A stretch of DNA of 64,000 nucleotides from Candidatus Iainarchaeum sp. (GTDB lineage: Archaea > Micrarchaeota > Micrarchaeia > Anstonellales > Bilamarchaeaceae): assembly GCA_028714535.1 (NCBI GenBank), contig JAQTME010000004.1:7319-71318 (forward strand). Reading direction: 5' to 3'. Both the position numbers and the translations under genes were made by a program. This document shows positions 1 to 25,428 of the stretch, piece by piece (within the stretch, counting starts at the first letter, position 1; every line of letters begins with the position of its first letter). Below the pieces are notes generated by a model. That model saw only the letters and a program-made list of their open reading frames with translations, was not told the origin of the DNA and did not search any database.

Positions 1-489
1 AACGACGACATCAAGAAGCGCATACTCATGAGCGAGGACGACCCGTTCAAGAGCCCGAACTTCCACCACCCGAGGTCCAAGTCGCGCGAGGACGTGCTCA
101 AGGAGCCCTCCATAATAGTGACCACGTCAGGCATGCTGACCGGCGGCCCTGTGATGTTCTACCTGGAGAAGCTCGGCAGCAACCCCAGGAACACAATGAT
201 ATTCGTCGGCTACCAGGCGGAAGGCACCCCGGGCAGCCGCGTCCTGCTGGGGGAGAAGGTCCTGCAGCCGAAAGACCCGCGCAGCAGGCCGATAAAGCTG
301 GGGTTGCGCGTGGAGAGCGTGCGCCTGTCAGGCCACGCCGACTTCAACGAACTGATACAGTTCGCCCACTCGGTGAAGGGATTGAAGAAGATATTCCTGA
401 TGCACGGCGAGAAGACCGACCTGCAGGCTGCGCTGGAGAAGAAATACGAGGTAATCGTGCCCAGGATGCTCGACACCTATTCCATCTGA
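1..489 (+). CDS. C-terminal fragment (5' end outside window) of a beta-CASP metallo-beta-lactamase-fold ribonuclease; reading frame open to position 1
   Basis: Tail ...SGMLTGGP...VGYQAEG...SGHADFNELIQFAHSVKGLKKIFLMHGE aligns to the C-terminus of the full aCPSF1-like protein at 32740-34644 (SGMLSGGP...VGYQSAL...SGHSDRAQLMAYI...VTMHGD). No in-frame stop upstream of 28. Confidence 0.7.
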   Translation, partial: NDDIKKRILMSEDDPFKSPNFHHPRSKSREDVLKEPSIIVTTSGMLTGGPVMFYLEKLGSNPRNTMIFVGYQAEGTPGSRVLLGEKVLQPKDPRSRPIKLGLRVESVRLSGHADFNELIQFAHSVKGLKKIFLMHGEKTDLQAALEKKYEVIVPRMLDTYSI

Positions 490-532
490 GTCCGCTGCCG
501 CTGGTTCCGGATTTAAAACAAGGGTAAAAAGC

Positions 533-3238
533 CTAAGAGAGGTCTGCGCAGTCCCTGGCGCCGGACGTGAACGGAAGGGAGCAGCTGTGCTTCGGGTCGC
601 CGCCCACATAGACGTCTATTTCGCCCTTGGTGCCGTTCGCCGTGGTCACGAGTATGTAAGTGCCCATGTTGGTGCCGTTGAACGTCTGCACGCCGATTCC
701 CTGGCCCCACACGACGCCGGTGCAGGTCTGGTTCGCCTTCGGGCCGCACCAGATGGAGACCCAGCCGACGTATCCCGGATAGAGGTCGGTGCTGCCGAAT
801 ATGGTGCACCATTCGGTGCTGCCGCCGTCATTGTTGCCGCCTCCGGTGCCTCCCACGGCTATCGGGGCAAGGCACACCGGAATCATCGGTGGCGGCCCCA
901 TGTCGACCACCGCGGCGCCCTGCAGCTGCCCGCTCGTGTTGTAGTCGGGCGCGTTGTACTGGGTGCCAGCCACGCTGTCGTTGGTGTGGCTTCCGCCCAG
1001 GCCGCCTATGAGGTCGTATATCACGTTTGTGGCGTTTATCCGAGTTGGAGTGCTGCCACGGAGGTCATATACAAGCGTTTGGAAGTACTGCGTCTTGTTC
1101 ACGCTCATCTTCGCGCTGGCCGGGTTGAACTGGCATGAGTAGTTGGGCTGGACCACTGTCACGGTGGAGTTGCACAATGCCTGGCCGCTGGTGTAGGTGA
1201 GCAGGCCCACAGAGCCGACTGGAGACGTCGGGTATGCCCAGGCGTGCGTGTTGTCGGTTTCCGCTGCTATGAACCCGCCGGATATGCCTGACCATGCCCA
1301 TGCATTGCCGGTGCAGCTTACCGTGACATTGACGCGGTTCCTGCATGTGACCGTGAACACGCCAGCCATGTTCTGGCCGACCGACGTGCTGTTGGGCTGT
1401 ATGTCGCAGTAGTATGCGTCGCCGCCCTGGTTGCTGACGTTTATGGGCGCCAGCGCGACCGCGCCGAGTATGTACGGCGGGTGGTCTCCGAAGTATGCAG
1501 CGCCCTGCAGGTCTCCCCTGCTCGGGGCCGAGGGCGCGGTGTAGGTGACGCCGTTGACGCTGTCGTTGCTTGTGTTGCCTATGAGGCCGTTGACTGTGTC
1601 GTAAGCAAAATCGTTCGGCACTATCGTTATGGTGCGGTTCGCCGCGCAATGGAGCTCGAAGTACCTCTCCTCGTCATAGGTCATGTCCGCGCGCGGCGGC
1701 ATGAAGCTGCAGTTGTATACCGTCCTGTTGACTATGTCCTCGGGATGCACCACGTTCAGCGTGGAGTTGCACGAGGCTATGGCGTTGGACGAAGTGTATA
1801 TGACGTTGCCTGTCACGTGCGGCGTGGCGTCGGAATACAGGCGCGAGTGGGTCTCGTCTGCCTCCAGGAACGTGCCTGCGAGGACTGTATCAGCAGCCCA
1901 GTTGCTGCCCACGCACGAAACCGATGCGCCTGCCAGGTCCTGGCATGCGACGTTGAACTCTGCTATCTCGCGCGGCGCCACGGTGAGCCCGGGCGGGACT
2001 ATGGTGCACGTGGCCGGTGTATCATTGATGGGCGCGGTTGCAGTGCATCTTGAGGATGCGCCGCACGCGCCTGATATGGTCTCTGCGTTGAATGTGAGCA
2101 TCGTGCCTCCTGACGCCGCGCTGGTCGTGACCAGCGTGTAGAGGTCGTCGTTCGCCCCGCTGTTGACGGTCTGGTTGAAGCCGTTGGACGGCGGGCAGAG
2201 CGAGCCGAAGCCGAGCACGCTGCACAAGGATATCGGGAACGGTATCGCGCTGAACTGCGGGTCGGAGCTCGACACGTTGAGCACGCGTATGGCGTCGGCG
2301 TTGTTGTGTATCCTTGTCCTGACCATGGTCGTGCCGGTGACGTTAGCCGTAGAGCGGCTGACGCTTATGGCCGTGGTGCTCATGCTGCAGTTGCCGCCGC
2401 TGCTGACCACGTTGATTGTGACGGTGTCAGTGGCCAGCGAGGCCGGCATGGCCGGCAGGTTCCTGCCGAAGTAATATAAGCGGTAGTAGTTGTTCGTGAG
2501 GTCGAGCGGGTGCTTTTCCAGCGCGGCGAAGCACGACACGTTGGAAAGGCTCGTCTCTATGCTGTGCGTGGTTGTCGCAGTGGCGTTTATCGTGAAGTCG
2601 ACCGGAGCCATGCTCGGGAGCGCAGAGGTGCCGCGCACTGTCGTTCCGTCGCGTACCTGGAAGGTCCCCTTGCAGAATATGTTGGCTCCGCCCTCCTTGT
2701 TGTACCAGTAGCGCGGCGTCTCGACCGTGCCGTTGTTGTAGGTCACGGGCTCGTTGTAGAACACTCCCCCGAGCGCGGTGCGGTGTGACGGGTCCTGGGT
2801 GAAGCCGTTGTTGTAGGCGAATGCCGCCTCTGTGTTATAGACAGCCGGGTCGATCCAGGCGATGTCCCTGTTGTTGGTGAGGGTTCCGGCGTTTATCATT
2901 GCCGGGCAGTAGTCGCCCGCGAGCCCGCTGCATGCCGGATAGAGCGATGCTATGTTGAGGGTTGATACTGCCCATCTCGCCGTGGTGGCCCCCGATACCC
3001 TTATGGTCGCGCCCCCGCAGACGGTGTCGCCGCTCTGCAGGTTGGCCGGGTCGCCGCTCACCACGTCGCCTGAAGCTATCGACATGTTGAAGTCCGTGAG
3101 CAGCCTCATCGTGGTGTTGAAGTTCTTGGTTGCGTCCTTCCCCTGGAAGTTGCCGCCGACGTCGGTGGCACATGCCGCCGATGCCAGCAGAATCAAAACG
3201 GAAAAGATTATGCTGAGGCTGTTTTTCATAGGTTGCAC
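533..3238 (-). CDS. Secreted Cys-rich surface (glyco)protein, 901 aa, with internal tandem repeat domains and very many N-x-S/T sequons; S-layer/adhesin-like
   Basis: N-terminal signal peptide MKNSLSIIFSVLILLASAACA. About 40 NxS/T sequons. Internal repeat ...LIGNTSNDSVNGVTYTAPS..LQGAAYFGDHPP vs ...LIGGLGGSHTNDSVAGTQYNAP..LQGAAVVDMGPPP. Start codon abuts the stop of the upstream gene (3239). Confidence 0.6.
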   Translation of the reverse strand: MQPMKNSLSIIFSVLILLASAACATDVGGNFQGKDATKNFNTTMRLLTDFNMSIASGDVVSGDPANLQSGDTVCGGATIRVSGATTARWAVSTLNIASLYPACSGLAGDYCPAMINAGTLTNNRDIAWIDPAVYNTEAAFAYNNGFTQDPSHRTALGGVFYNEPVTYNNGTVETPRYWYNKEGGANIFCKGTFQVRDGTTVRGTSALPSMAPVDFTINATATTTHSIETSLSNVSCFAALEKHPLDLTNNYYRLYYFGRNLPAMPASLATDTVTINVVSSGGNCSMSTTAISVSRSTANVTGTTMVRTRIHNNADAIRVLNVSSSDPQFSAIPFPISLCSVLGFGSLCPPSNGFNQTVNSGANDDLYTLVTTSAASGGTMLTFNAETISGACGASSRCTATAPINDTPATCTIVPPGLTVAPREIAEFNVACQDLAGASVSCVGSNWAADTVLAGTFLEADETHSRLYSDATPHVTGNVIYTSSNAIASCNSTLNVVHPEDIVNRTVYNCSFMPPRADMTYDEERYFELHCAANRTITIVPNDFAYDTVNGLIGNTSNDSVNGVTYTAPSAPSRGDLQGAAYFGDHPPYILGAVALAPINVSNQGGDAYYCDIQPNSTSVGQNMAGVFTVTCRNRVNVTVSCTGNAWAWSGISGGFIAAETDNTHAWAYPTSPVGSVGLLTYTSGQALCNSTVTVVQPNYSCQFNPASAKMSVNKTQYFQTLVYDLRGSTPTRINATNVIYDLIGGLGGSHTNDSVAGTQYNAPDYNTSGQLQGAAVVDMGPPPMIPVCLAPIAVGGTGGGNNDGGSTEWCTIFGSTDLYPGYVGWVSIWCGPKANQTCTGVVWGQGIGVQTFNGTNMGTYILVTTANGTKGEIDVYVGGDPKHSCSLPFTSGARDCADLS

Positions 3239-5191
3239 CTACTTCTTCTTCGGCTTCAGGCCGCTCAGCGGAGACTTCCCTATCTGGAAGGTGTTCTCCA
3301 CGTTCACGAACAGGCCTCCGGGCACGCGGTCTGCTTTGGCGCCGCCGATTTCCTGCGTGTAGCCCGCGCGGACGAGGAGGTCGAGCGGGAAGTCGACTAC
3401 CCTGCCGACATACCTCGTGTTGGCCGATGCCTCCAGCGTGCTCACCGCGGTCTTGAGGTTCTTCGTGGCGCTGACCGTGGCGTCGAGCTGGAGCATGAAC
3501 TTCTCGGTGGTGCGCGCGAACTGCGCAGGCGTCAGCTGGCCGCCCACCCTCAGCTCGTTCATGAGCGAGGATATCTCCGGCGTGAGCAGGGTCGTGACCC
3601 TCCAGCTGTTCTTCTCCCTAGTCGAGGCAGAGAATGTGATGTAGCCGAGCCAGTCTATGCCGCTGACCACGAGCCTGTCCTGCTCGAAGCTCATGGCAGG
3701 CCGTATCTGCCCGCCTACCTTCGCAGGCGGCAGCAGCATGAACCTGGTGCGGTCGCCTTCCGTGCCCCAGAAATTTATCTCAAGGCCGGCGAGGCTGAGG
3801 TACCACTGGTTGTAGCTCTGCGCAGGTATGTGCAGGGTGGTGCCGTCGCTGAGCAGCCTGTCTATGCCGTTGAGGCCCCAGGTCTTGTAGCCGCCGGTGA
3901 GGTTGAATTTTATCTCCATCGGCTGCCCGAAGAATCCGATTCCCTCTCCCCAGGTGCCTGTCGCCTCCACCGCGTGCCCCCTGCCGGTCAGCACCCCCCT
4001 GTCGCCGGTCGCCGTTAGCGGCGATCCCGTCGCGGTCGGGTCGTACTGCATGCGGGCGTACTGCCCGCTCATGCCGAGCATGGAATAGTGGAGCGCAAGG
4101 CCTGCGTAAAGCCCCACGGGCTGGAAGGTCATGAACCCCTTCGGCTTCTTGGTCCTGGTTATCTCGTCCTTGAACATCTGCTGGTTCTCGTCGAAGTTCC
4201 ACTGGCACTTCAGCCCGTACCTCATCGTGGTGAACGCCTTGGGGTTGGTCATCACGGTGAACAGGTTGTTTATCGCGTTGCGGAACTCCGGGTTGTTGAA
4301 CACGGTCTCGTTGCCGAGCAGCGCAAGGCCCGCGGCGAGGTTGCCGCTCTGCAATTGCTGCATGGCCGTCCTGAAGCTGCCGCTCTGCCACAGGTCGTCA
4401 GTGGACGGTATCCTGCTCAGGGCGGTGTAGAGGTCGCGGGCTGCGACCGGGGCTGCAGACGAGGACATGAAGTTCTCGTCGTTGGCCCACTGCTGCTGTA
4501 CGTTGGTGAACGACCGCATTATGTTCCGCGCGTTGTCGACGCCTGCCTTGTCCGCCAGTTCGCCTGGCGTCTGCGGGTCGCCGAACTGCCACACGGTGGA
4601 GTTCGTCCTTGCGCTGTTGACGAACAGCGCGCCCTCGTAGCGCTGCGGGGGCGGTATCAGGAGCAGCCCTTCGCTGGTTGACGACTTCGTTTTTTCGCTT
4701 ACCTGTATCTTCGTCGCTGCGCCGCGGAGCGTCAGGTTGATTTTCGCCATCTGGCCCAGGTACGCATCGTATGCATCGTATCTCGCATCGCCTGCCTTGA
4801 GGCCCTTGTCTATCTCTGAAAGCATTGTCAGGAGCGCCGTTGAATCAGCGCCTGCGTCTGCCTTGCCCGTGAGCTTGTTGGAAAGCTCTATCATCATCCT
4901 TATGTGGGCATCCTGGAGCTTTAGTATGGCCGCGTTCTTGTCCACCTTGGTGCCGGTGGTGCCCAGCGCCAGCGCTGAGTTGTAGAGTGACGTGCCTGCG
5001 ATGTCTGTTTTCGCCGGCGTGCCAGCCCACAGGAGCTTAAGCGTTTCCCATGCCTGGACCGTGTTGCGGGCGAGCTGCTGAGCGCTGTCGCTCGCGGGCT
5101 TGTAGCCCTCGCGTATCTGTGTGATCAGCTGCTGCTTCTGCGTTCCCACGTCCGTTTCCGTTTTCGGTGCGGTTTTCATCTCAGTCACCAT
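3239..5191 (-). CDS. Hypothetical 650-aa protein. N-terminal half alpha-rich; C-terminal ~330 aa with alternating hydrophobic/aromatic beta-strand pattern (beta-barrel/porin-like); no signal peptide found
   Basis: Long ORF with good protein-like composition. Stop is immediately adjacent to the start of 533-3238. C-terminal region rich in Y/W/F/G alternations (YAGLALHYSMLGM, QWYLSLAGLEINFWGT, GGLFVNVENTFQIG). Confidence 0.6.
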   Translation of the reverse strand: MVTEMKTAPKTETDVGTQKQQLITQIREGYKPASDSAQQLARNTVQAWETLKLLWAGTPAKTDIAGTSLYNSALALGTTGTKVDKNAAILKLQDAHIRMMIELSNKLTGKADAGADSTALLTMLSEIDKGLKAGDARYDAYDAYLGQMAKINLTLRGAATKIQVSEKTKSSTSEGLLLIPPPQRYEGALFVNSARTNSTVWQFGDPQTPGELADKAGVDNARNIMRSFTNVQQQWANDENFMSSSAAPVAARDLYTALSRIPSTDDLWQSGSFRTAMQQLQSGNLAAGLALLGNETVFNNPEFRNAINNLFTVMTNPKAFTTMRYGLKCQWNFDENQQMFKDEITRTKKPKGFMTFQPVGLYAGLALHYSMLGMSGQYARMQYDPTATGSPLTATGDRGVLTGRGHAVEATGTWGEGIGFFGQPMEIKFNLTGGYKTWGLNGIDRLLSDGTTLHIPAQSYNQWYLSLAGLEINFWGTEGDRTRFMLLPPAKVGGQIRPAMSFEQDRLVVSGIDWLGYITFSASTREKNSWRVTTLLTPEISSLMNELRVGGQLTPAQFARTTEKFMLQLDATVSATKNLKTAVSTLEASANTRYVGRVVDFPLDLLVRAGYTQEIGGAKADRVPGGLFVNVENTFQIGKSPLSGLKPKKK

Positions 5192-5211
5192 CTTTAGTCA
5201 CCTCATGAAGA

Positions 5212-5373
5212 TCATGCTGTGAATCCTACTGGTGATTGAGCAAAACTCTTATTAATACCCGCCGCTCCGGCTCCGAGAACAAGTGCGCTCGCCGCTGCCG
5301 CTGTGAATGCCGCGGCGGCATTGTGCGCTCCAGTTTTCTTCCCGGCTGGGTTAACCATGCTCAAACATTTCAT
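5212..5373 (-). CDS. Small Ala/Gly-rich hydrophobic peptide, 53 aa, translationally coupled inside the large-protein operon
   Basis: Strong Shine-Dalgarno GGAGGTGGGAG 3 nt before ATG (MKCLSMVNPAGKKTGAHNAAAAFTAAAASALVLGAGAAGINKSFAQSPVGFTA). Stop lies 21 nt before the ATG of the 650-aa gene. Confidence 0.45.
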   Translation of the reverse strand: MKCLSMVNPAGKKTGAHNAAAAFTAAAASALVLGAGAAGINKSFAQSPVGFTA

Positions 5374-5410
5374 TACTCCCACCTCCTTCTGATATCCACC
5401 CATGTTAGCG

Positions 5411-8400
5411 TCATTTCACTTCCTGCTGCGGCGTGACTACCACCACAGCGCGGCTCTCCGAGAACTTCACGACCCTGTCCGAGGCCGGGCTCGCCTTCTC
5501 CACCTGCTCGATATTGCCGCTCGCCTTGCCGCTGCCTATGTCGGCAATGAGGGTCAGCGTCGCCGAGACGTCCTTCAGGCTCGCTGATTTCGGCCTCGAA
5601 ACCATGGACATGTTCGCGTTAAGCGTCGCGTCCATCTCCGGCTCGTAGTCGGTCCCCTTCTTTATGCGGTAAAGCACGTCTTCAGGAGCCACCCTCCCCT
5701 TGGAGAGCTTACCGGCGTACGCCGGGCCCCTGGTCTCCACCGGCGGGGTCGGCTCTGCGCGAACCACCGCCCTGCCGATTTTCGTGCCGTCTGTCAGCAC
5801 CACGTTGTCCATCACGACGCCTATGTAGGCGTGCTCAGGGTCGCTCCTGTACGCAGGGTTGAGCAGGAACTCCTGCCCTGCCTGTTCCTGGTACCAGAAG
5901 TAATTGAACACCACCATCGCGTCCGGGTGCATCTTCGCGGCCTGGGCGTGTGTGTACGCCTTGCCCCCCTCCACCCATGTCATGTTGGTCGGGGAAGCGT
6001 ACACGAAGTGGCCCCTCGTGCGCGTGTCCTTTATTATGGCAATCGCGTCTGCCGGGACCGATGTCGTTACCGGCGTCTCAGGCAGCACCATGCCCTCGAG
6101 GTTCTTGTCGTCGAGGCTCGCCAGGGCCTGCTCTGCTGTCATTATGGACTGCACGGGCGTCATGGGCACCGAGCCGTTGAAGAGGCTGGTCCCGATTCTC
6201 ATGCCATACCTGGTGCGGAGCGCCTTGAGCTCGTCAAGCGATTCCACCGCCCTGACCACGAAATACCTCTTCGCGTCCCCTGACGTCACGAGCGTGCGGA
6301 TGGGCACCGTCGCCTTCCTGCCCGCAATCTCGACCTCTATGGACGCGGCCAGCCTCTTCTCCAGCTGCTGCAGCTTGAGATCGAGGATCTGCATGAACCC
6401 GTTGTTGATGGCGGTTATCTGCGCCTCCGGGGTCGTCGCTGCCTTGCCGTAGTTGAGGGAAATGTTGCGCATGCCTGCGGTGAACACCGATGCATCGAAA
6501 TTCCTCAGGAGCTCAGGGACGTTCTTGTCGCCGTTGAGTATCTCCTGCCTGTAGACCTCTGCAAAGAGGGCGCCCTGCGGGTATACCGGGGCGTCCAGGT
6601 GGCCCCTCTCCTGGTGGTCCACGTGCCTGTCTGCTATGGCCACGGTCGGGCTGGGCCTTGAAGCCTCGATCAGGAGCGGCTTCCTGACGACATCCGGGCT
6701 GAGCAGCCCGTAGGCGGTCATGAATGCCTGGCTCGGCGCGGGCAGCACCGGGCGCTCGAAGTCCCCTGCCCTCTTGCTGGCCAGCATCCTTATGTGGCCT
6801 GCCTCTGCGTTGCGGGCAGCCTCGACCGCCACATCACGGTCCGTCAGCTGCGCCTCTCTCATCTTGTCGAGGTCCACCTGTGCGCCCTTGGCTCCTACGC
6901 GGAGCTCAAGGACATGGCTCTTGGCGGCTTCGCTCTTGAAAAGCACTTCGTATCCTGCATGGACCTCGGTGGTGCCGAATATGGCCGGTGCGAGGAGGTG
7001 GATTGCATTCGAGGCCACGTCCCTCGCGAGGTCCGGATATGAATAGAACTGCGTGGGCCCTGCTTCAGGCACCTTGTAGCAGTGCTCGAACCTTCTCAGC
7101 GATGCGTTTATTATCTCCCTGGCCTGGCCGAACTGCTCTTTCGTCAGGTCTGCGCGGCCGATTGTGCCGGTGTTGAGTATCCATGTCTCAGCCGCCCTTG
7201 TGGCCACCATGTCCAGGGCCATGCTCCAGAGCGCGTCCGCGTATGCTATCTTGCCCTCCTTCTCCGTGGGCTGCTCCATCCCCAGCCACTTGTTCGCGGC
7301 TATGATGCGCTGGTCTGTCTGCTGGACGCCGGACGCCGACAGGAGCGAGGCTGCGGTCTGCACATAATAGCGCGCATCCTGCAGCTGCATGTCCACGTTG
7401 GCGTGGCCGGCATACTGGGCGTAGTCCTGGGCCCAGAGGGTCCAGGCGGAGTTCAGCGAAGCGAGCGTCTGCACCACTGGCTCTGTCGCCGCGTTGACCG
7501 GGGCGAACTGGTATGCTATGCGGTAGACGCCGTAGAGCGCGTCCTCCGTCATCCACCGCGGGTTGCTCATGAGCGCTGCCCTGACCTTCTTTTCCGGCTC
7601 AAGGTAGTTGCCCGTGGCGTTCCTGTACTGCGCGATGAGGAAAGTGCGGAGTTCAGGCGGGTAAAACTCATACGGGCTGATGCTCGGGTTCACCATGATC
7701 GCGGCCGCGGTGGAATATGCCTTCCACGCGTCCTGCCTTGCCGTTGCGTCCTTGCCCGCCAGGCCGTTCTGGAACGCGTAGCTCCACATGCCGACGAGGT
7801 CGCTTATGGCGCGGCTGTCCTTCATCAGTGCCTGCTCCATGTCCGCGACCTGCGTATATGAATACCTGCCCTTGGCAGTGGCGATCTGCCTGCCTACCTG
7901 TTCCAGGCGGTTGCTTGCGGCCGCCACCAGGCTGCCGCTGCCGTTGTCTACGCCTGTGCCGAGGGCGTGGTAGTACCTGTTATACTCTATTATCTTCTGG
8001 CTGTTCTTGAGCGCTTCCCCCCTGCCAGTTGCCACGGTGTTGATTCCGTCGAGTTTCTCCTGGGTGCGGAGCTGGCTGCTGTCAGGGAGCTTTTTCACTG
8101 CCTCGACGTTCCACGCCGCTATCGTCTGCAGGTTGCCCATCCTCTGCCCGAGCAGGGCCTGTTCCCTGTCGAAGATGGCGATTGCGTAGGTATACTGGCG
8201 CTTGGCCAGGTCGACATCCCCTGTGTTGAGCGTGTTCGCTGCTGTCCTGAGCGCGAAGTACATCTCCCACCTGGGCGATACCTTCATCGTCAGGCTCGAG
8301 GCGTCCGGCCTCACGCTCGCCTCGTCCTCGCTGAGCAGCCAGACGTCCGGAAGCGTCTTTATCATGCGTTCCGCGCTTGCCTTGACATCCTGCGTCCTCT

Positions 8401-9565
8401 TGGAGTCTGCAAGGATGGCGCTGAGCGTCTTGTTGAGGTCGGAAAGCTCCCGCATGAGCGGGTTGGTGCCCTCCTTGGACGCCACGCTGGCGTTGGTCAC
8501 GTCCCTGGCCGCCTTGAGGGCCAGCTGTATCGCCCTGTCTGAGTTGTATGAAGAGACGTATGTCTTGAGGTTGTCAATTGACCTGGCTGCCTGCTTCGCA
8601 TCAAGCGGCGTCGCCTGGGGCGAATTTGAAAGGTCGTAGGTCTGAAGCTCGTTGCTGATGTTGCTCTGGAGCTCGTATGCGTGGTCTCTTGCGGCTGCGG
8701 TCGGCCCGGGCGTCCTGGCGTTTCCCTCTGCCGCGCTTATTATGCGCGAGAGGTCCTGGATTATCGTTTCGATGCGTTCGCGTTCAGCCGGTGCTATCTG
8801 CGGTACTGTGACCTTGACCGGAACTGCGGTGGTGGAACTAGTCGCCTTCTTTTCTGGCGCCCGCTTCAATTCCACATATGAGCTCTCAGGGACTGCAGTG
8901 GTTGCCCTCTTTTCTGCCGGCTGCGGTATGACCGTTTTCGTTGTATCTGTCCTCGTGGGGACCTGGGTTGCCGGCGCGCTGATCGTTTTCGTCGGCGTGG
9001 ATGCGGTCATCGCAGCGCTCAGCTCCTCTCCGAACGTCGCGTTGTCGATGGCATTGTTGAGCGCCCTGTCCGTCTGCACCTTTATCCTTGCGAGCGTGAG
9101 GGTGTCGAGCCTGGCGGTTCCCGCAGGAATCGTGATGTAGTCGCTGCCCCTGCCCGTGGCGTCCTTGGCCGGGTTGTAGGGCCTCAGCGCGTCGTTGATC
9201 TGTGTGAGCGTCTTTACGAACGGGTCTCTGTATTTCGCCTTGGCTTCTGCCTCGTTTCCGGCAGGCATGCCCCGGACTTCCCTCGTCCTTGCGTACCTGT
9301 AGATAAGATTGTACTGGGTCTCGTATGTGGCCTTCAGCGAGGCCAATTCCTTCGCAGTCGTCTCCTTTTTTTCCGTCGTAACTGTTTGAGCCATGGCAAC
9401 ACCACCTGTAACGTCAAGGGCTATCGGAGCCCCAACAACTATCGCACCTACGGCGAACGCCCTGAAGGCGCGCCCGCCCGGTGTATCTCTGCCTGAATGA
9501 GAATTTAAAACTGCGTTGGTCGGATGTTTGAGTATCATTTTTCTCCCTCCTCTCTTGACAAACAT
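5411..9565 (-). CDS. Giant secreted/envelope protein, 1384 aa: N-terminal signal/TM, Thr/Pro-rich linker, long alpha-rich body
   Basis: N-terminal hydrophobic segment FRAFAVGAIVVGAPIALDVTGGVAMA. T/P/A-rich linker (TASTPTKTISAPATQVPTRTDTTKTVIPQPAEK...). TATA-like TTTATAAA about 25-30 nt upstream of ATG (leaderless). Confidence 0.65.
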   Translation of the reverse strand: MFVKRGGRKMILKHPTNAVLNSHSGRDTPGGRAFRAFAVGAIVVGAPIALDVTGGVAMAQTVTTEKKETTAKELASLKATYETQYNLIYRYARTREVRGMPAGNEAEAKAKYRDPFVKTLTQINDALRPYNPAKDATGRGSDYITIPAGTARLDTLTLARIKVQTDRALNNAIDNATFGEELSAAMTASTPTKTISAPATQVPTRTDTTKTVIPQPAEKRATTAVPESSYVELKRAPEKKATSSTTAVPVKVTVPQIAPAERERIETIIQDLSRIISAAEGNARTPGPTAAARDHAYELQSNISNELQTYDLSNSPQATPLDAKQAARSIDNLKTYVSSYNSDRAIQLALKAARDVTNASVASKEGTNPLMRELSDLNKTLSAILADSKRTQDVKASAERMIKTLPDVWLLSEDEASVRPDASSLTMKVSPRWEMYFALRTAANTLNTGDVDLAKRQYTYAIAIFDREQALLGQRMGNLQTIAAWNVEAVKKLPDSSQLRTQEKLDGINTVATGRGEALKNSQKIIEYNRYYHALGTGVDNGSGSLVAAASNRLEQVGRQIATAKGRYSYTQVADMEQALMKDSRAISDLVGMWSYAFQNGLAGKDATARQDAWKAYSTAAAIMVNPSISPYEFYPPELRTFLIAQYRNATGNYLEPEKKVRAALMSNPRWMTEDALYGVYRIAYQFAPVNAATEPVVQTLASLNSAWTLWAQDYAQYAGHANVDMQLQDARYYVQTAASLLSASGVQQTDQRIIAANKWLGMEQPTEKEGKIAYADALWSMALDMVATRAAETWILNTGTIGRADLTKEQFGQAREIINASLRRFEHCYKVPEAGPTQFYSYPDLARDVASNAIHLLAPAIFGTTEVHAGYEVLFKSEAAKSHVLELRVGAKGAQVDLDKMREAQLTDRDVAVEAARNAEAGHIRMLASKRAGDFERPVLPAPSQAFMTAYGLLSPDVVRKPLLIEASRPSPTVAIADRHVDHQERGHLDAPVYPQGALFAEVYRQEILNGDKNVPELLRNFDASVFTAGMRNISLNYGKAATTPEAQITAINNGFMQILDLKLQQLEKRLAASIEVEIAGRKATVPIRTLVTSGDAKRYFVVRAVESLDELKALRTRYGMRIGTSLFNGSVPMTPVQSIMTAEQALASLDDKNLEGMVLPETPVTTSVPADAIAIIKDTRTRGHFVYASPTNMTWVEGGKAYTHAQAAKMHPDAMVVFNYFWYQEQAGQEFLLNPAYRSDPEHAYIGVVMDNVVLTDGTKIGRAVVRAEPTPPVETRGPAYAGKLSKGRVAPEDVLYRIKKGTDYEPEMDATLNANMSMVSRPKSASLKDVSATLTLIADIGSGKASGNIEQVEKASPASDRVVKFSESRAVVVVTPQQEVK

Positions 9566-9586: not shown

Positions 9587-9600
9587 GAATAATTTATAAA
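9587..9600 (-). promoter_or_regulatory. TATA box (TTTATAAA) for leaderless transcript of the 1384-aa gene
   Basis: About 25-30 nt upstream of ATG at 9565, in an AT-rich divergent intergenic region. Confidence 0.5.
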
Positions 9601-9950: not shown

Positions 9951-11186
9951 ATGAGGATGAAATTCAAGGACTTGAGCATCAGCGCCAGGACAATCGCTGC
10001 GCTTGAAGAGATGGGCTATTCTGACGCCACAGAGGTCCAGGAGAAGACGATCCCCCTGATATTGCAGGGCGAGGACCTCATGGTCCGCAGCCAGACCGGC
10101 ACAGGCAAGACGGCCGCCTTCGGGGTCGGCCTGATAGACGTCATATCCAGGGACAGGGGCAGGAAGGCCCTCATACTCGCCCCCACGCGGGAGCTGGCCG
10201 CCCAGATAACCAGCGAGCTGCGTTCCATAGCGAAGCACCACCGCCTGGAGATATTCGCGGTATACGGTGGCACGGGCATGGGCAGGCAGACCGTGCTCCT
10301 CAGGCGCGGATTCGACATCCTCGTCGCGACGCCTGGCCGCCTGCTCGACCACCTGCAGCAGGGCAATGCGCGGCTGGAATCAGTGAACTGCGTCGTCCTT
10401 GACGAGGCAGACCGCATGCTCGACATGGGCTTCAAGCCGGACATAGACCGGATACTGGGGAGGATAGGCCGGGACAGGCAGGTGCTGCTTTTTTCCGCCA
10501 CGTTCGACCCGCCCATAGTCGCCATCGCCAACAGCTACCTTTCCTCGCCGCAGTCCATAGAGGTCGGCCCTGTGGGCAAGGTTGAGAAGATAGACGAGGA
10601 GTTCATACGGCTGAGCAGGGCGCAGAAGCTCGACAAGCTCAAGGAGATACTCAAGCGCGAGCCGATGTCACGGACGCTCGTCTTCGTCGGCTCCAAAAGG
10701 GCCGTGGAGGGCGTCTGCAAGAAGCTGAACGCGGACGGCATCGACGCCCAGTTCATCCACGGGGGCAGGAGCCAGAACCAAAGGGAGCGCGCGGTGCGCG
10801 GCTTCCAGGAGGGCTCATTCAGGATACTAGTCGCCACCGACGTCGCGGCGCGCGGCCTCCACATAGACGACATCTCCCACGTCATCAACTACGACCAGGC
10901 GGATTCCACAGACATGCACACGCACCGCATCGGCAGGACCGGCCGCATGGGCAAGGGCGGGAAGGCCATCACGTTCGTGGAGACCGACCCGCTGCCGAAA
11001 GTCCAGAGGGGCAGGTTCAACCGCGGCGGCTTCGGCCATCAGCAGGGCGGATACGGGCGGCCTTCGCATGAGGGCCACGCCCAGCACGGGCGCGATCACG
11101 AATCTTCCGGGCAGCACGGCGCGCATTCATCCTCGGGCTACAGGAACCGGCCGAGGGACCGCAGGCACCGCGAGCAGCGCCGTTAG
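9951..11186 (+). CDS. DEAD-box ATP-dependent RNA helicase with Gly/Arg/His-rich C-terminal tail
   Basis: Motifs GTGKT (Walker A), DEAD (VLDEADRML), SAT (FSAT), HRIGRTGR. ORF frame opens with GTG at 9945; first ATG at 9951 (alternatively 9957). Tail RGGFGHQQGGYGRPSHEGH...RDRRHREQRR. Confidence 0.85.
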   Translation: MRMKFKDLSISARTIAALEEMGYSDATEVQEKTIPLILQGEDLMVRSQTGTGKTAAFGVGLIDVISRDRGRKALILAPTRELAAQITSELRSIAKHHRLEIFAVYGGTGMGRQTVLLRRGFDILVATPGRLLDHLQQGNARLESVNCVVLDEADRMLDMGFKPDIDRILGRIGRDRQVLLFSATFDPPIVAIANSYLSSPQSIEVGPVGKVEKIDEEFIRLSRAQKLDKLKEILKREPMSRTLVFVGSKRAVEGVCKKLNADGIDAQFIHGGRSQNQRERAVRGFQEGSFRILVATDVAARGLHIDDISHVINYDQADSTDMHTHRIGRTGRMGKGGKAITFVETDPLPKVQRGRFNRGGFGHQQGGYGRPSHEGHAQHGRDHESSGQHGAHSSSGYRNRPRDRRHREQRR

Positions 11187-18201: not shown

Positions 18202-20853
18202 ATGGAATGGCATGCGGTCCCGCAGGAAAGCGCCATGAAGCGCCTGGGCGCCGCAGAGGGCGGGCTTAGCGCCGAAGAGGCGGCGAAGCGGCTGGGGGAG
18301 CACGGCCCGAACAGCATAGCGATAGAGCGGAAAATCTCCGCGCTGCACATCTTCGTCAGCCAGTTCAAGAACCTCCTCATAGTGCTCCTGCTGCTCGCCG
18401 CGCTCGTCTCGCTCGGGCTCAGCTTCATCAACCCGGAGGAGGCCGAGCTGCTGGACGCGCTGCTGATTTTCGCCATAGTCATCGCCAACGCGGTGCTTGG
18501 CTTCGCGCAGGAATACAAGGCCGAGAAGTCCATAGAGGCGCTCACCAGGATGGCGGCGCCGCTGGCATCGGTCATGCGCGGCGGCAGGGAAGTCGAAATC
18601 CGTTCCGAGGATGTCGTGCCAGGCGACATCCTGCTCCTGCTCGAGGGCGACAAGGTCGCCGCCGACGCAAGGCTCATCGAATGCTTCTCCATATACGCGG
18701 ACGAGTCCATGCTCACCGGCGAGAGCGTGCCGGCGCACAAGTCCCCGGGAGTGCTTCCGAAGGAAACGCCGCTGGCAGAAAGGGACAACATGGTGTACAT
18801 GAACTCGGTGATAACCCGCGGCAAGGGCACGGCCGTCGTTGTCCACACCGGGCTGAAGACCGAGATGGGGAAGATAGCCAAGGAGATATCCGAGGCGCCC
18901 GAGAAGGTCACGCAGTTCCAGCTGGAGATAGGGGACATAAGCAAGAAGGTGTCGATACTGGTCGTCGTCATGCTGGTGATAATCTCCGTCACAGAATTCC
19001 TCATGCGCACCGGCGACCTGCTCTTCATATTCATGGCCGCAGTGGCCCTTGGCGTCGCCGCAATCCCGGAAGGCCTTCCGGCGGTCGTCACCCTCGCGCT
19101 CTCCATAGCGACCAACCGCATGCTCAGGCAGAACGCGCTCATGAGGCGGCTCTCCACCATACAGGACCTGGGCTCGGTCAACGTCATCTGCACTGACAAG
19201 ACAGGCACCCTGACCGAGAACGTGATGACCGTCACGAAGATGTGCTTCGACGGCAGGCACGTGGAGGTCGGCGGCCGGGGCCTGGACCTGCACGGCAGCT
19301 TCGTCCCGCAGCCCGAGCGCAACGAGTTCGAGATGCTCCTGCTCTGCGGCGTGCTCTGCAACGACGCGCGGCAGGTGGAAACGGACGGGGCCATGAAATT
19401 CAAGGGCGACCCGACCGAGATCGCGGTCCTCATCCCGGCATACAAGGCAGGCCTTGACGTGGACGGCCTGCGCAGGCGATGGAAGCGCGTGGGCGAGGTT
19501 CCGTTCTCATCGGAGCGCAAGCTCATGTCCACTGCGAACAGCGACGGCAGGCGCACATACACATTCGTGAAGGGCGCGCCGGAGGTGCTCCTCTCGCGCT
19601 GCACCCACATCAACGAGCGCGGCACGCCCAGGGAGATGACCGGGAAGGACAGGAAGGAGGTGCTGGAGCACAACCGCGCGCTCGCATCGCACGCCCTGCG
19701 CGTCCTCGGCTTCGCGTACAAGGAAAGCCCCGCGTCCATGGACGAAACGGAAATGGAGAACGGGCTGGTCTTCCTCGGCCTGATGGGCATGAAGGACCCG
19801 CCCAGGGCTGGCGTGAAAGAAGCCGTAGAAGACTGCAGGAAGGCCGGCATACGCGTGATTATGATAACCGGCGACAACCGCTACACCGCCGAGGCCGTGG
19901 GCCGCGAGCTGGGCTTCTCCGGCGCCGCGGTGACCGGCGACGAACTGGACAAACTGTCGGAGGCGCAGTTCGCCAAGGCCGTGGAAAAAACGGACATCTA
20001 CGCGCGCACGTCCCCGAAGCACAAGGTCCAGCTGCTCAGGGCCCTGCAGGCCAACGGCCACATAGTGTGCATGACAGGCGACGGCGTCAACGACGCCGCG
20101 GCCATAAAGAACTCCGACGTCGGAATCGCCATGGGCATACGCGGAACCGAGGTCACCAAGCAGGCCAGCGACATAATCGTGCTGGACGACAACTTCATCA
20201 CCATCCGCAACGCCATAGCAGAGGGCCGGGGCACGTTCGACAACATCCGCAAGTTCGTGGCATACATGCTCGGCGCGAACATATCAGAGGTGCTCATAGT
20301 GTTCATCGCGACAGTGGCCGCGCTCGGCATATCGCCGAAAATCGCCATACAGCTGTTGTGGATAAACCTCGTGACCGACGGCGTCCCAGCGGTCGCCATG
20401 GGCGTGGACCCGCCGGCGAAGGGCATCATGCAGCGGCCGCCCAGGAAAAAGGGCGAGCGCATGGCTGACACGGACACGATGTACTTCCTGGGCTCCATCG
20501 GATTTGCGGCCACGGTTGCGCTCCTGCTGCTCTACGCCTTCTACATGGGCGCCGAGGGCGCGATGAAGGCCTATTCCATACTGTTCACGTCGTTCGTGGT
20601 CCTGGAGATGCTCACTGTATACGCGGTCCGCTGGAGGTACGGCACGGACATCCTCTCCAACATCTGGCTCCACGCCGCGGTCGCCTCGTCGCTCATCCTC
20701 CAGCTCGCGCTGCTCTATACCCCGCTCAACTCGCTTTTCGGCATAGTGCCGCTCTCGCTGCAGGACTGGGCCGGCATAACAGCCGCCATGGCGGGCTACC
20801 TCGCGCTCGTGGCTGCCGCGCTCAGGCTGGAGCCGCTGGTAATAAGGAAATAA
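18202..20853 (+). CDS. P-type ATPase, type IIA (Ca2+-transporting-like)
   Basis: DKTGTLT phosphorylation motif, TGDN, MTGDGVNDAAAIK, about 10 TM segments. Confidence 0.85.
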   Translation: MEWHAVPQESAMKRLGAAEGGLSAEEAAKRLGEHGPNSIAIERKISALHIFVSQFKNLLIVLLLLAALVSLGLSFINPEEAELLDALLIFAIVIANAVLGFAQEYKAEKSIEALTRMAAPLASVMRGGREVEIRSEDVVPGDILLLLEGDKVAADARLIECFSIYADESMLTGESVPAHKSPGVLPKETPLAERDNMVYMNSVITRGKGTAVVVHTGLKTEMGKIAKEISEAPEKVTQFQLEIGDISKKVSILVVVMLVIISVTEFLMRTGDLLFIFMAAVALGVAAIPEGLPAVVTLALSIATNRMLRQNALMRRLSTIQDLGSVNVICTDKTGTLTENVMTVTKMCFDGRHVEVGGRGLDLHGSFVPQPERNEFEMLLLCGVLCNDARQVETDGAMKFKGDPTEIAVLIPAYKAGLDVDGLRRRWKRVGEVPFSSERKLMSTANSDGRRTYTFVKGAPEVLLSRCTHINERGTPREMTGKDRKEVLEHNRALASHALRVLGFAYKESPASMDETEMENGLVFLGLMGMKDPPRAGVKEAVEDCRKAGIRVIMITGDNRYTAEAVGRELGFSGAAVTGDELDKLSEAQFAKAVEKTDIYARTSPKHKVQLLRALQANGHIVCMTGDGVNDAAAIKNSDVGIAMGIRGTEVTKQASDIIVLDDNFITIRNAIAEGRGTFDNIRKFVAYMLGANISEVLIVFIATVAALGISPKIAIQLLWINLVTDGVPAVAMGVDPPAKGIMQRPPRKKGERMADTDTMYFLGSIGFAATVALLLLYAFYMGAEGAMKAYSILFTSFVVLEMLTVYAVRWRYGTDILSNIWLHAAVASSLILQLALLYTPLNSLFGIVPLSLQDWAGITAAMAGYLALVAAALRLEPLVIRK

Positions 20854-20894: not shown

Positions 20895-21674
20895 ATGGTT
20901 GCCATGCGCCGACAACCTCCAAAACGCAAAGCCAAGCAGCCGCGCCGGAAGCCGCCGAAGCCCGAAGCGAACCGGCAAACCGAGCGGGTGTCGACCGGCA
21001 TCCCGGGCCTCGACGCGCTCATAGAGGGCGGGTTCGTGAGGAACAGCACGGTCCTGGTGCGCGGCGACACGGGGACCGCGAAGACGCTTTTCTGCATCCA
21101 GTACCTCTACGAGGGCGCCCTGGCAGGCGAGCCGGGCGTGTTCATAAGCTTCGCGGAATCCCGCGAGGCCATATACGAGCATGGCAGGAAATTCGGCTGG
21201 GACCTGGACGCCCTGGCGAGGAAGGGCCTGTTCGAGGTCATACGCTACGACCCGCACGAAGTCGTCAAGATAATGCAGGAGGGCGGCGGCCTCATTAGGG
21301 ACACCATCGAGTCGAAGGCGGCTAAGCGGCTGGCCATAGACTCGCTGAGCGCCTACGAGCTGTTTTTCGAGAACAAGTACAAGTCCAACCAGTCCGTCCT
21401 GAGCCTTTTCGAGCTGCTGAAGAAATGGAATGTCACGGCCATGGTGACGTCGGAGATGCCAGTGAGCCTGACAAACGAGACAAGGGACCGGCTCGGCTTC
21501 CTGACCGAGGGCATACTGAACCTCTACCACCTGAGGAGCCACGCAGAACGCCTCCGCGCCCTGGAGATACTCAAGATGAGGGACACCAACCACAATGAGG
21601 GGCTGTACCATTTCACGATTGAAAAAACAGGCCTGAGGGTGCGCGGGAGGCTGAGCGGCTTTGGCAGGGAGTAG
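20895..21674 (+). CDS. KaiC/RecA-superfamily ATPase, ArlH(FlaH)-like, with Lys/Arg/Pro-rich N-terminal tail
   Basis: GIPGLDALIEGGFVRNSTVLVRGDTGTAKT Walker A. Overlaps the start of the downstream vWA prepilin by 14 nt. Confidence 0.7.
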   Translation: MVAMRRQPPKRKAKQPRRKPPKPEANRQTERVSTGIPGLDALIEGGFVRNSTVLVRGDTGTAKTLFCIQYLYEGALAGEPGVFISFAESREAIYEHGRKFGWDLDALARKGLFEVIRYDPHEVVKIMQEGGGLIRDTIESKAAKRLAIDSLSAYELFFENKYKSNQSVLSLFELLKKWNVTAMVTSEMPVSLTNETRDRLGFLTEGILNLYHLRSHAERLRALEILKMRDTNHNEGLYHFTIEKTGLRVRGRLSGFGRE

Positions 21675-23904
21675 GGCGGCCCAGGCGAGCACAGAGTTCA
21701 TCTTCATCCTAGCGATATCGATGGTCGTCATAACCATAATCATGGTCCTGGCGCAGCAGCAGATAACCACAGTGCAGAAGCAGAAGGACTCAGCAGACGC
21801 GCAGAACGCGGTCCTGGACCTGAGCGCGGCGGCCAAGGAGGTCTATGCCCAGGGCGAGGGGTCAAGGAAGCAGGTGTTCATACGGCTGCCGGGCAGCTAC
21901 GAGCCGGGCGGCTCGTCCATAGGCGCCCGGTCCATACAGATACGGGCGGCCGGCACGGATTACGTGGCAGTGGAGAACTTCAACCTGCGCGGCTACCTGC
22001 CCGCCACCTCCGGAGGCCACTGGGTGTGGGTCACGTCCGAGGGCAGCAGGGTGCGCATAGGGCTCGCGATGATGGAACTCGACAGGAACCGCATATACCT
22101 GGTCATGAACAGGAACACCACTGCGACGGCGCCGTTCTCAGTGACCAACGCGTGGATACGCAGCATAAACGTTACGACCGCGGTGCGGTGGGATGCAACC
22201 GACGTCACAATGGACGGCGTGCCGTCCGGGTTCCAGCTCAACGTCGACAGCAGCAATATGATAACCGCGCATTTCACCGCAGGCGCAGATGCCGGCGGCA
22301 TCTACATGGGCGAGATAGAGCTGAATGCGAGCGACGGCCAGGGGGCAACCGAAAGCGCCGAAGTGCCGGTGACCGTCTACGTCGTCGGCTACACTGCGCC
22401 TGAAAAGGACCTCCTGGGCCCGGTGATAACGGCCATCTACCAGGACCCCGCTCCAGCCATAGTATACGAGCCTCTGGCGATAATACTGACCGCGACAGAC
22501 GAGCAGGCCGGCAACAACAGCATCAGGGACTGCGAGATGGACGCAGACCAGGCCGGAAACTGGCAGGTGATACTGCCCGTGGACGGCGCCTACGATCAGC
22601 CCACCGAAACCGCCATGCACAATTACACGGCCGGGTTCTCCTGGGGCGTGCACAGCATCCGGGCGCGGTGCACCGACGTCATGAACAACACCGGGCCGAC
22701 GGCATTCTATTACTTCAACGTGACCCAGTCAGACATGCTCGGGCCTATCGTGACGAACCTGACGCACACCGAATATCCGACGACCCTGTCTAACATCACC
22801 GCGAGCGCCATAGCGACGGACGTATACACGGGCGGCAGCAACATCGCGAGCTGCCAGGTGAAGGTCGATACCGGCGCATGGCACAACGCCACCCCTATGG
22901 ACGGGCTGTACGACTCCCCTTCGGAGAACGTCAGCTATAACGCAGGCCAGCTGGCGCCCGGCTACCATACCATATACTGGCAGTGCGTGGACGTCCTGGG
23001 CAACGCCGGCGGCACCTACAACGACAGCTTCGGCGTCGTGGACGTGGACCTCATGCTCGTCCTGGACCAGTCCTACTCCATGGACGCGTTCGTGACCAGC
23101 TCGTCGAGCTCCACGGTCGTCGAGACGACCAACACCGGGTTCACGCGCCTGAAGAACATAACGATACCGGCCAAGAACGGCAACCTGGCCAACCTCTCCA
23201 CCGAGATAAAGGCAGACGTCAGCGGGTGCACGGCCTACTACGAGGCGAGGATAAACGGCGTGGTGGTGGCAAGCGGCAACCGCACGTCCACCAGCTACGG
23301 CACCATCGCCGCCAGCATAAACGTATCGCAGTTCACTGCGCCGTTCGACGTCGCGCTCTACATGAAGCGCAGCCCGACCGCGAACTGCAAGGTCAGCAAC
23401 CAGCTGCTCTCGCTCCAGCAGGCGCCCAAGAAGATAACCGCCTCGCAGGATGCGGCAAAGACGTTCCTCAACGCCATAGACTCGTCCAACCAGGCCGGGC
23501 TGGTCACCTTCAGCGCCTCTGCGACCCTGAGCAAGCAGCTCGCCGCGATGACCGAGGCGAACAAGACGGCGCTCAAGGCCGCGATAGACGTGGTAAGCTA
23601 CGGCTTCAGCACCTGCCTGGAGTGCGGGCTGAAGACAGGCGCGGACGAGCTGACGTCCGCCAGGGGCAGGCCCGCAGCCACCAGGGTCATCGTGATGCTC
23701 ACGGACGGAATGAGCAACTCCGGCGACCCGGTCGCCGGCGCGGTCTACTGCAGGGACCGCGACGTGACCGTCTACACGATCGGGTTCGGCAACGACGTGA
23801 ACGACACCGAGCTGACCAACATCGCCCTGCTCACCCACGGCGAATACTACTTCGCGCCGAATGCGGAGACGCTCATGGACATATTCATGAACATAGGCAA
23901 GTGA
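21661..23904 (+). CDS. Giant prepilin-like protein, 747 aa: class III signal peptide-like N-terminus plus C-terminal von Willebrand factor A domain (TadG/PilY1-like tip adhesin candidate)
   Basis: N-terminus ...RAAQASTEFIFILAISMVVITIIMVLA. vWA with MIDAS DxSxS (LVLDQSYSMD), ...LVTFSASA..., VMLTDGMSNSGD, VYTIGFGND. Confidence 0.65.
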   Translation: MAGSRAAQASTEFIFILAISMVVITIIMVLAQQQITTVQKQKDSADAQNAVLDLSAAAKEVYAQGEGSRKQVFIRLPGSYEPGGSSIGARSIQIRAAGTDYVAVENFNLRGYLPATSGGHWVWVTSEGSRVRIGLAMMELDRNRIYLVMNRNTTATAPFSVTNAWIRSINVTTAVRWDATDVTMDGVPSGFQLNVDSSNMITAHFTAGADAGGIYMGEIELNASDGQGATESAEVPVTVYVVGYTAPEKDLLGPVITAIYQDPAPAIVYEPLAIILTATDEQAGNNSIRDCEMDADQAGNWQVILPVDGAYDQPTETAMHNYTAGFSWGVHSIRARCTDVMNNTGPTAFYYFNVTQSDMLGPIVTNLTHTEYPTTLSNITASAIATDVYTGGSNIASCQVKVDTGAWHNATPMDGLYDSPSENVSYNAGQLAPGYHTIYWQCVDVLGNAGGTYNDSFGVVDVDLMLVLDQSYSMDAFVTSSSSSTVVETTNTGFTRLKNITIPAKNGNLANLSTEIKADVSGCTAYYEARINGVVVASGNRTSTSYGTIAASINVSQFTAPFDVALYMKRSPTANCKVSNQLLSLQQAPKKITASQDAAKTFLNAIDSSNQAGLVTFSASATLSKQLAAMTEANKTALKAAIDVVSYGFSTCLECGLKTGADELTSARGRPAATRVIVMLTDGMSNSGDPVAGAVYCRDRDVTVYTIGFGNDVNDTELTNIALLTHGEYYFAPNAETLMDIFMNIGK

Positions 23905-23909
23905 GCGCC

Positions 23910-24293
23910 ATGAAAGCCCAGATCTCATCCGAATTCATGGTCGTATTCTCGGCCCTGGTCCTGATATTCGTGGTCGTGTTCACCCTGTACTCGGGCGGCA
24001 GCCTCAACCTCTTCCAGGCAGAGGGCTCTGTCGCGGCCATGCGCAACGCGAACGCGGTCGCGGCCGCGCTGAACTACGCCTACCTGGCAGGCGACGGCGC
24101 CAGCTACTCGTTCACGCCCGCGAGGGTGGCGAGCGACGAGAACATAACCATATCCGACTACGCCGTCTCGTCGGAGCGGCCGCACGCCTATGCCGCGGCG
24201 CCGCTGCTCGACGGCAGCATAAACGCCAGCTCGATAGGCCGTGGGCCTGTGCTCATAACCAACAACGGAGGGGAACTCGATATCAGCGGCTGA
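23910..24293 (+). CDS. Minor prepilin-like protein (class III signal peptide), 127 aa
   Basis: MKAQISSEFMVVFSALVLIFVVVF: KxQ-xSxEF plus hydrophobic stretch, same architecture as the major pilins. Confidence 0.6.
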   Translation: MKAQISSEFMVVFSALVLIFVVVFTLYSGGSLNLFQAEGSVAAMRNANAVAAALNYAYLAGDGASYSFTPARVASDENITISDYAVSSERPHAYAAAPLLDGSINASSIGRGPVLITNNGGELDISG

Positions 24294-24312
24294 CCCAGGC
24301 AGAAGAGGAGCC

Positions 24313-25271: not shown

Positions 25272-25428
25272 AAATCATGCACAGGAGGAAAATTTCAGCC
25301 GCTGGTTTGTCTAGGTTCAGCCTAATGAAGTTTTATGATGGCAAGGAGCGCAGCGCGCTCCTTGACTGTCGTGGAATGCATGGCATTCCACTCCAAATTT
25401 TATCAGAAGTAACCAGGAGGAAAATTTC

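Follow-up and report, generated by a model that had tools for sequence, protein, structure and literature searches.

A conserved four-gene operon of Micrarchaeota encodes a protein family with a predicted outer-membrane-type β-barrel

In textbooks, membrane β-barrels of the outer-membrane protein (OMP) type mark out bacteria and the organelles descended from them, and the literature searched yielded no description of one from archaea. The only archaeal outer-membrane pore protein known to have been characterised, Ihomp1/Imp1227 of Ignicoccus hospitalis, is a small α-helical oligomer that forms no barrel and is unrelated to the proteins described here, and no paper that connects β-barrel membrane proteins with Micrarchaeota or DPANN archaea came up in full-text literature searches. 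ARMAN/Micrarchaeota are listed among the possibly diderm archaea (PMC8871954), and SLP_Mh, a surface protein of this phylum, is an N-glycosylated secreted protein of ~100 kDa with a PF05123/MSTP-like β-sandwich and almost no sulfur-containing residues (10.1101/2021.04.28.441871). Here we analyse an operon in a 64,000-nucleotide (nt) stretch of Candidatus Iainarchaeum sp. DNA (assembly GCA_028714535.1, contig JAQTME010000004.1, positions 7,319 to 71,318), hereafter the window, whose third gene is predicted to encode a protein of two N-terminal helical domains followed by a 12–14-stranded antiparallel β-barrel with the geometry of bacterial OMPs. Gene and operon constitute a new protein family and a new operon; the underlying fold is a known one, but archaea are not where it would be expected.

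A sequence-only reading of the window had noted a porin-like pattern in the C-terminal half of this 650-amino-acid (aa) protein, and structure prediction with AlphaFold2 (AF2) using 52 family members agrees with it, returning an OMP-type barrel rather than a β-sandwich or β-helix. The mean predicted local distance difference test score (pLDDT) was 90.2 (five models, 86.5–90.2) with a predicted template-modelling score (pTM) of 0.69, and the five models agree, 483 of the 650 residues having a pLDDT of at least 90. In order along the chain, the model consists of a helical bundle, a disordered linker, a second helical domain, 13 long strands plus a short one (aa 310–637), and a tail, its strands being predicted to form the closed antiparallel meander, with an even strand number of at least 8, that characterises OMP-type barrels. 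Confidence in the barrel depends on alignment depth, since a run with two sequences yielded the N-terminal helical bundle only and a pLDDT below 35 in the C-terminal barrel region. Structural comparison matched the model to the barrels of Hbp (score 14.9), AIDA-I (14.3), BrkA (14.2), the COG4313 channel (14.0), NalP (13.7), OmpG (13.5) and FapF (12.8), with BcsC, PgaA, PelB, CdiB and FhaC also among the matches; these OMPs are 4–11% identical in sequence to the barrel protein and score about twice as high as Osh6p. The Foldseek list likewise contained mostly OMPs, none of them significant (all E > 0.01). The curated OMP profiles of Pfam and NCBIfam do not match the barrel protein, and a single one of the 52 family members matches the COG4313 channel family PF13557 weakly, below the cut-off (E = 0.005). 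Because a profile match, a signal peptide and a terminal aromatic signal are all lacking, the protein was placed in no bacterial OMP family.

The amphipathic pattern expected of such a barrel runs through the whole family. Over 52 sequences, the mean contrast in hydropathy between alternate positions amounts to 1.52 in strands and 0.52 in helices; each strand holds 4–5 alternating hydrophobic positions with aromatic residues at its ends, and the alternation spans only ~9–10 residues per strand even where strands are 29–30 residues long. Gly (11%), Thr (10.7%) and aromatic residues are abundant in the barrel domain; its last strand has the conserved form P-[FY]-G-[SG]-L-[NG]-L-T-L, and beyond that strand come a linker and an A-V-P-[KR]-[KR] tail.

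A word-indexed protein search recovered the protein's own NCBI record and one relative only, even with a profile. An exhaustive HMMER search over 1.84 billion cluster representatives (clusters at 50% identity) assembled 53 family clusters, mostly of 550–865 aa, of which 12 reach E ≤ 1e-30, and all members with a named organism come from Ca. Micrarchaeota, Micrarchaeia or 'ainarchaeum' metagenome-assembled genomes. Full-length profile matches and a shared position, between the large-protein and microprotein genes on one side and a Cys-rich protein gene on the other, mark these as one new family. The sequence-only reading had proposed looking for the gene set in related genomes, and it was indeed found in all nine of the other contigs sampled, whose barrel proteins are 20–43% identical to that of the window. 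Gene order was the same in each (large protein; microprotein of 45–63 aa or a second, leader-bearing barrel paralogue; barrel; Cys-rich protein of 700–900 aa), always convergent with beta-CASP and FeS_assembly_P genes, with the reservation that the large-protein gene is cut by the contig end in locus L001 and lies off the contig in L005. The operon is thus a core, vertically inherited locus of Micrarchaeota/Iainarchaeota and not an island or an assembly chimera. A viral or mobile origin was rejected on the strength of this strict chromosomal synteny, of zero PHROGs matches, and of a BFVD fold search with the barrel model that returned no significant match.

All four open reading frames (ORFs) had been reported by the sequence-only reading as tightly linked minus-strand genes of no nameable family, and both points hold: frames of 1384, 53, 650 and ~900 aa lie closely spaced at the coordinates it gave, every internal gene has its own Shine-Dalgarno (SD) site, and none of the four products has a match in Pfam, NCBIfam, PHROGs or PDB sequences. 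The features of the operon are as follows.

5411–9565, minus strand: gene 1, 1384 aa (ORF and translation)
5212–5373 (ORF 5212–5403), minus strand: gene 2, 53-aa microprotein, likely start ATG 5373, 6 nt past a perfect GGAGGTG
3239–5191, minus strand: gene 3, 650-aa ORF, predicted helical domains then β-barrel, SD GAGGTGA at 5198–5204
4727–5158, minus strand: barrel protein aa 12–155, predicted helical bundle (AF2 pLDDT 82–98 in both runs)
4274–4564, minus strand: barrel protein aa 210–306, predicted second helical domain with the family motif ..L..G(D/N)L..(G/A)L..L (AF2, family alignment)
3281–4264, minus strand: barrel protein aa 310–637, 13–14 long antiparallel strands, predicted OMP-type closed β-barrel
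3242–3280, minus strand: barrel protein aa 638–650, predicted disordered basic tail, family motif A-V-P-[KR]-[KR]
533–3229 (ORF 533–3238), minus strand: gene 4, ~898-aa secreted Cys-rich protein, signal peptide MKNSLSIIFSVLILLASAACA
9593–9600, minus strand: TATA-box-like TTTATAAA, ~30 nt 5' of ATG 9565, as read from the sequence
514–530, minus strand: oligo-T runs directly past the gene 4 stop, a candidate archaeal terminator by inspection

The element TTTATAAA is a candidate archaeal promoter from which a leaderless or nearly leaderless operon mRNA would start. At the other end, the convergent beta-CASP gene finishes at 489, beside the operon's 3' end, and beyond it and FeS_assembly_P there usually follow ACT, PIN_9, DUF4349 and M24 peptidase genes. 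A deeply conserved Micrarchaeota block adjoins the operon (window 28–489, plus strand; flanks of L001 and L003–L009), and upstream several loci carry genes for a GlmU-like nucleotidyltransferase, PurP and a cis-prenyltransferase. The window as a whole was confirmed to be archaeal DNA, as had been claimed, by its genes for FttA/aCPSF1, tRNA-splicing endonuclease, the PolD small subunit, PurP and geranylgeranyl reductase. NCBI labels the contig 'Candidatus ainarchaeum sp.', presumably Ca. Iainarchaeum, a DPANN genus.

Gene 4 was earlier described as a Cys-rich, heavily sequon-decorated repeat protein, and closer inspection bears this out: its product has 28 Cys, 28 N-x-S/T sequons against 13.3 ± 3.1 in shuffled sequences, and two ~170-aa repeats (nt 1490–2008 and 905–1408; 35% identity, E = 2e-28). 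ATG 3229 is a likelier start than GTG 3238, because homologues begin MKN(G/S)L and an AGGTG lies 6 nt upstream; the statement that genes 3 and 4 abut with no intergenic space is accordingly true of the GTG start and fails for the ATG, which leaves a 9-nt spacer after the gene 3 stop. The hydrophobic leader ends A-x-A↓Q, as in ~10 barrel paralogues, and there is no C-terminal membrane anchor. Members of this Cys-rich family align along their length, with 17 invariant Cys. A signal peptide and dense N-glycosylation sequons are what an S-layer (surface-layer) protein would have, and an S_layer_N/MSTP-like domain was not found, either by Pfam or in a profile search of PDB sequences, which came back empty. 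Identity with the known Micrarchaeota S-layer protein was rejected, since PF05123 does not match and 28 Cys contrast with an almost sulfur-free SLP_Mh.

The gene 1 product begins with a long basic leader (MFVKRGGRKMILKH..LNSHSG) and a hydrophobic segment (aa 33–52, nt 9410–9469) followed by VAMA↓Q, after which a long Ala/Leu/Glu/Arg-rich region leads to a conserved C-terminal domain of ~215 aa (nt 5414–6058). NCBI annotates a shorter protein (1327 aa, P0003) beginning only at the Met of the VAMA↓Q sequence; the longer form is supported by the upstream GGRK..LNSHSG motif, which aligns with homologues. These homologues (1150–1391 aa) occupy the same operon position in L001, L003, L004 and L006–L009, and the proteins align along their lengths. 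The label 'alpha-rich' given to the gene 1 product reflects composition only, and a helical fold is at most suggested by it. Homology between this protein and the N-terminal domain of the barrel protein was considered and found unsupported (hhalign probability 6.6%).

Between the two lies the microprotein, whose 'very strong' SD proved to be a perfect GGAGGTG (5380–5386), 6 nt before ATG 5373. The small ORF is a real gene: homologues precede the barrel gene in L001, L003, L004, L007 and L008 (GTG starts being assumed for three of them in the alignment), with the consensus tail ASPEHI.N..AP.PLAFT, and the window's own product has a basic N-terminus, a single hydrophobic segment and the conserved tail ..IN..xAxSPVGFTA. 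In two family members, P0019 and P0049, microprotein and barrel protein are fused in frame, suggesting homology between the microprotein and the leader of these fused forms. A long leader (M[RK]L[RK]H.., a basic region, ..AGALGLAVL.G.., A-x-A↓Q) is found on ~10 members of the barrel family, and the leaders of the large proteins are alike. The same leader type, in which M[RK]L[RK]H and 15–35 mostly basic or polar residues precede a hydrophobic core and A-x-A↓Q, with an RR pair in about half, is seen in the large protein (9410–9565), the microprotein (5212–5373), the leaders of L003–L009, and P0014, P0023, P0026, P0032 and P0034. This unusually long sequence resembles the extended signal peptides of autotransporters and has the appearance of a targeting signal specific to the lineage.

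Each operon seen also has one leaderless barrel protein, typically starting MAQAQ, which is the mature start in the fused forms; leaderless members, the window protein included, start MAQ.. or MVTEM... In the window, gene 3 begins 20 nt past gene 2, and its two candidate starts (5191 and 5179) arise from duplication of a GGTGACT..ATG unit, NCBI using the second ATG (5179; 646 aa). The DNA of this junction (window 5177–5204) is conserved in the distant loci L003, L007 and L008 (~9970–10006) as ..GCATTCAC..GGTGACTAAA-N-ATGGC.., in which GGTGACTAAA-N-ATGG represents SD and start. The idea that the small ORF is a detached signal peptide, reconnected through frameshifting or readthrough, was rejected: junction spacing and frame vary between loci, both frames contain stops, and a conserved SD lies inside the junction. 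Recoding is excluded because the reading frames of peptide and barrel differ from locus to locus. Hitch-hiking through the twin-arginine translocation (Tat) pathway by way of the microprotein is likewise unsupported, the microproteins having no twin arginine. At three loci (L005, 96–4288; L006, 10001–14190; L009, 10001–14195) a complete second barrel paralogue, bearing the leader, takes the place of the microprotein gene, and the tandem of leader-bearing and leaderless barrels hints at a heterodimer.

The analysis shows the leaders, the linkage of the genes, an amphipathic pattern across the family and a predicted fold; the cellular location and the roles of the partner proteins are inferred. 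The explanation we favour, to which we give an even chance of being correct, is a vertically inherited Micrarchaeota/Iainarchaeota cell-envelope operon with a trans-envelope barrel module. The barrel would be embedded in a hydrophobic layer beyond the cytoplasmic membrane, be it an outer membrane or an outer sheath that contains lipid, and its helical domains would occupy the space under that layer. The 1384-aa protein, anchored or exported via its N-terminal hydrophobic segment, would tie the barrel to the cytoplasmic membrane, and the single-pass microprotein may tether it likewise, while the anchor-less Cys-rich glycoprotein might be displayed on the barrel or exported through it, in the manner of a two-partner or autotransporter passenger. 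The leaders ending A-x-A↓Q on gene 4 and ~10 barrel paralogues, together with the 28 Cys and the doubled sequon count of gene 4, speak for an extracytoplasmic setting. In its strongest form, Micrarchaeota/Iainarchaeota would have a true second membrane with β-barrels of their own, independent of the β-barrel assembly machinery (BAM), and the operon would be the core trans-envelope scaffold; this stronger form we consider possible and on balance rather unlikely.

Several observations weigh against this envelope module. Only the leaders of other family members suggest that the 650-aa protein lies outside the cytoplasm; no signal peptide was found in the window's barrel protein or in one barrel protein of each operon seen, nor any conserved frameshift or readthrough able to supply one, so that the route of the leaderless barrel across the cytoplasmic membrane is unexplained, and this is the chief argument against an extracytoplasmic location. 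A bacterial-type C-terminal β-signal (terminal aromatic residue) was sought in the barrel family and a basic tail found instead, and we know of no BAM, or of any other insertion machinery, in archaea. Closure of the barrel and the outward orientation of its hydrophobic side are presumed from the model rather than measured from its coordinates, and the roles of genes 1, 2 and 4 are ones we infer only. Finally, freeze-etch electron microscopy of a cultured Micrarchaeon shows an S-layer and not a second membrane (10.1101/2021.04.28.441871), a result later than, and at odds with, the proposal that ARMAN have two membranes.

An outward-facing hydrophobic belt requires a membrane, and with the cell's own second membrane in dispute that membrane might be another cell's. 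The operon could then encode a host-directed device, the barrel being delivered into the membrane of a host archaeon for attachment or as a conduit, the Cys-rich glycoprotein serving as adhesin and the 1384-aa protein as an intercellular spacer. DPANN archaea are mostly obligate ectosymbionts with tight cell–cell contacts (PMC11329633), and the operon is both core and lineage-restricted, as would befit such a device. Known secreted pore formers, however, are established to be oligomeric hairpin barrels and not monomeric barrels of 12–14 strands, and the missing signal peptide is equally a problem here, so that we consider the host-directed device unlikely. Many DPANN archaea cannot make their own lipids, and sequence alone does not tell which face of the barrel is hydrophobic. 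With a hydrophobic lumen, it might be a soluble or peripheral carrier bringing host isoprenoid lipids to the symbiont membrane, a cytoplasmic or peripheral role that suits a protein without a signal and organisms that are metabolically very limited and host-dependent (PMC11329633). We find such a carrier harder still to credit: the OMP matches score about twice as high as Osh6p, the ~9–10-residue alternation per strand resembles a belt rather than the lining of a whole cavity, and paralogues with cleavable-type leaders are exported. Moreover, membranes are, to our knowledge, the only place in which closed meander barrels with 12 or more strands are established to occur.

The resemblance of gene 4 to a surface glycoprotein and the reported S-layer of Micrarchaeota (10.1101/2021.04.28.441871) would also agree with a purely proteinaceous wall, in which the barrel and the Cys-rich glycoprotein together build an S-layer-like lattice, the barrel as its pore or anchor unit and with no lipid bilayer around it. 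A hydrophobic belt exposed in such a lattice would be unusual, however, and the Micrarchaeota S-layer family (PF05123/MSTP-like β-sandwich, almost sulfur-free) differs from gene 4 with its 28 Cys and no PF05123, making this arrangement quite improbable in our judgement. Least probable is a prediction artefact, in which the C-terminal half is, for example, a β-sandwich or solenoid and the operon a set of unrelated hypothetical proteins. The structure is indeed known from prediction alone, the pTM is modest and the Foldseek matches are not significant, but five concordant models with high pLDDT over most residues, and strict synteny across homologues just 20–28% identical to the window protein, argue for a genuine fold and a genuine gene set.

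Elsewhere in the window, a minus-strand ORF at 60864–63989 runs off the window end (>1041 aa) and has no family match. It had been taken for a distant paralogue of the operon proteins, a claim that does not survive comparison (BLASTP E ≥ 0.7 against all three proteins; hhalign probability 0.8% against the family profile), and a metagenome scan for its relatives found none. Its Gly/aromatic-rich C-terminus of ~340 aa ends ..VNWRANFKIGAEF, resembling a bacterial OMP C-terminus with terminal Phe, and its termination at 60864 in ..NWRANFKIGAEF is OMP-like in look; over these C-terminal 340 aa a crude beta-moment score comes close to the barrel's, though this score does not discriminate. It may be a second barrel-type protein of the same genome, unrelated by sequence to the barrel family. 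Overall, the proposal that the locus is an undescribed envelope system is partly supported. Plus-strand positions 20895–31406 hold an archaeal type IV pilus/archaellum-like locus comprising a KaiC-like ATPase, a 747-aa protein with a C-terminal VWA domain, two matchless ORFs, a T2SSE-type ATPase and two T2SSF/TadC-like membrane proteins. A 536-aa ORF (53361–54971, minus strand) has a ThyX (Thy1) domain at aa 308–497 only, its N-terminal ~300 aa being without a Pfam match, and could represent a fusion or an ORF extended in error. These 64 kb of a reduced DPANN genome also contain two genes for P-type cation ATPases (883 and 852 aa; 18202–20853 and 43876–46434, plus strand).

Should the strongest form, with a true second membrane, prove correct, Archaea would possess OMP-type barrels, whether invented independently or acquired by a very ancient transfer, and the debate on whether ARMAN are diderm would be decided for two membranes, in the lineages carrying the operon at any rate. 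A phylum-conserved OMP-like barrel with its partner genes makes this dispute experimentally approachable, and poses the question of how export and assembly work for such a barrel when both signal peptide and BAM are missing. The four uncharacterised core genes are also candidates for components of the DPANN envelope or host interface.

Among described systems, SLP_Mh shares with gene 4 its phylum and its type, a secreted surface protein of ~100 kDa, the two belonging to separate families. Omp-alpha/Omp-beta of Thermotoga and SlpA of Deinococcus resemble the operon in concept only, as a long helical tether combined with a β-barrel unit; they are bacterial, and the archaeal proteins have neither an SLH domain nor sequence similarity detectable by Pfam, no structural comparison having been made. 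Closer in fold are the bacterial OMPs of 12–14 strands (CymA, OmpG, the COG4313 channel PF13557, and the β-domains of Hbp, AIDA-I, BrkA and NalP), which show the same alternation and strand-end aromatics and a final strand of the G-x-L-x-L-x-L type also present in the archaeal barrel. Unlike them, the archaeal family has an archaeal host, 4–11% identity and no profile match, ~300 aa of N-terminal helical domains, an A-V-P-K-K tail in place of the terminal aromatic residue, and many members without a signal. In two-partner and type V secretion the transporter carries POTRA domains, where the N-terminal part of the archaeal barrel protein is instead predicted to be helical (AF2), and the passenger has a TPS domain or a β-helix, where the candidate archaeal passenger is a Cys-rich repeat protein (fold not modelled); by Pfam, no TPR, POTRA or TPS domain occurs in the operon proteins. 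The secretion porins BcsC, PgaA and PelB, and likewise FhaC and CdiB, nevertheless share with the archaeal protein the domain order of a helical periplasmic-type part followed by a barrel, and their barrel gene directly precedes the gene of a large secreted protein, just as in the archaeal operon.

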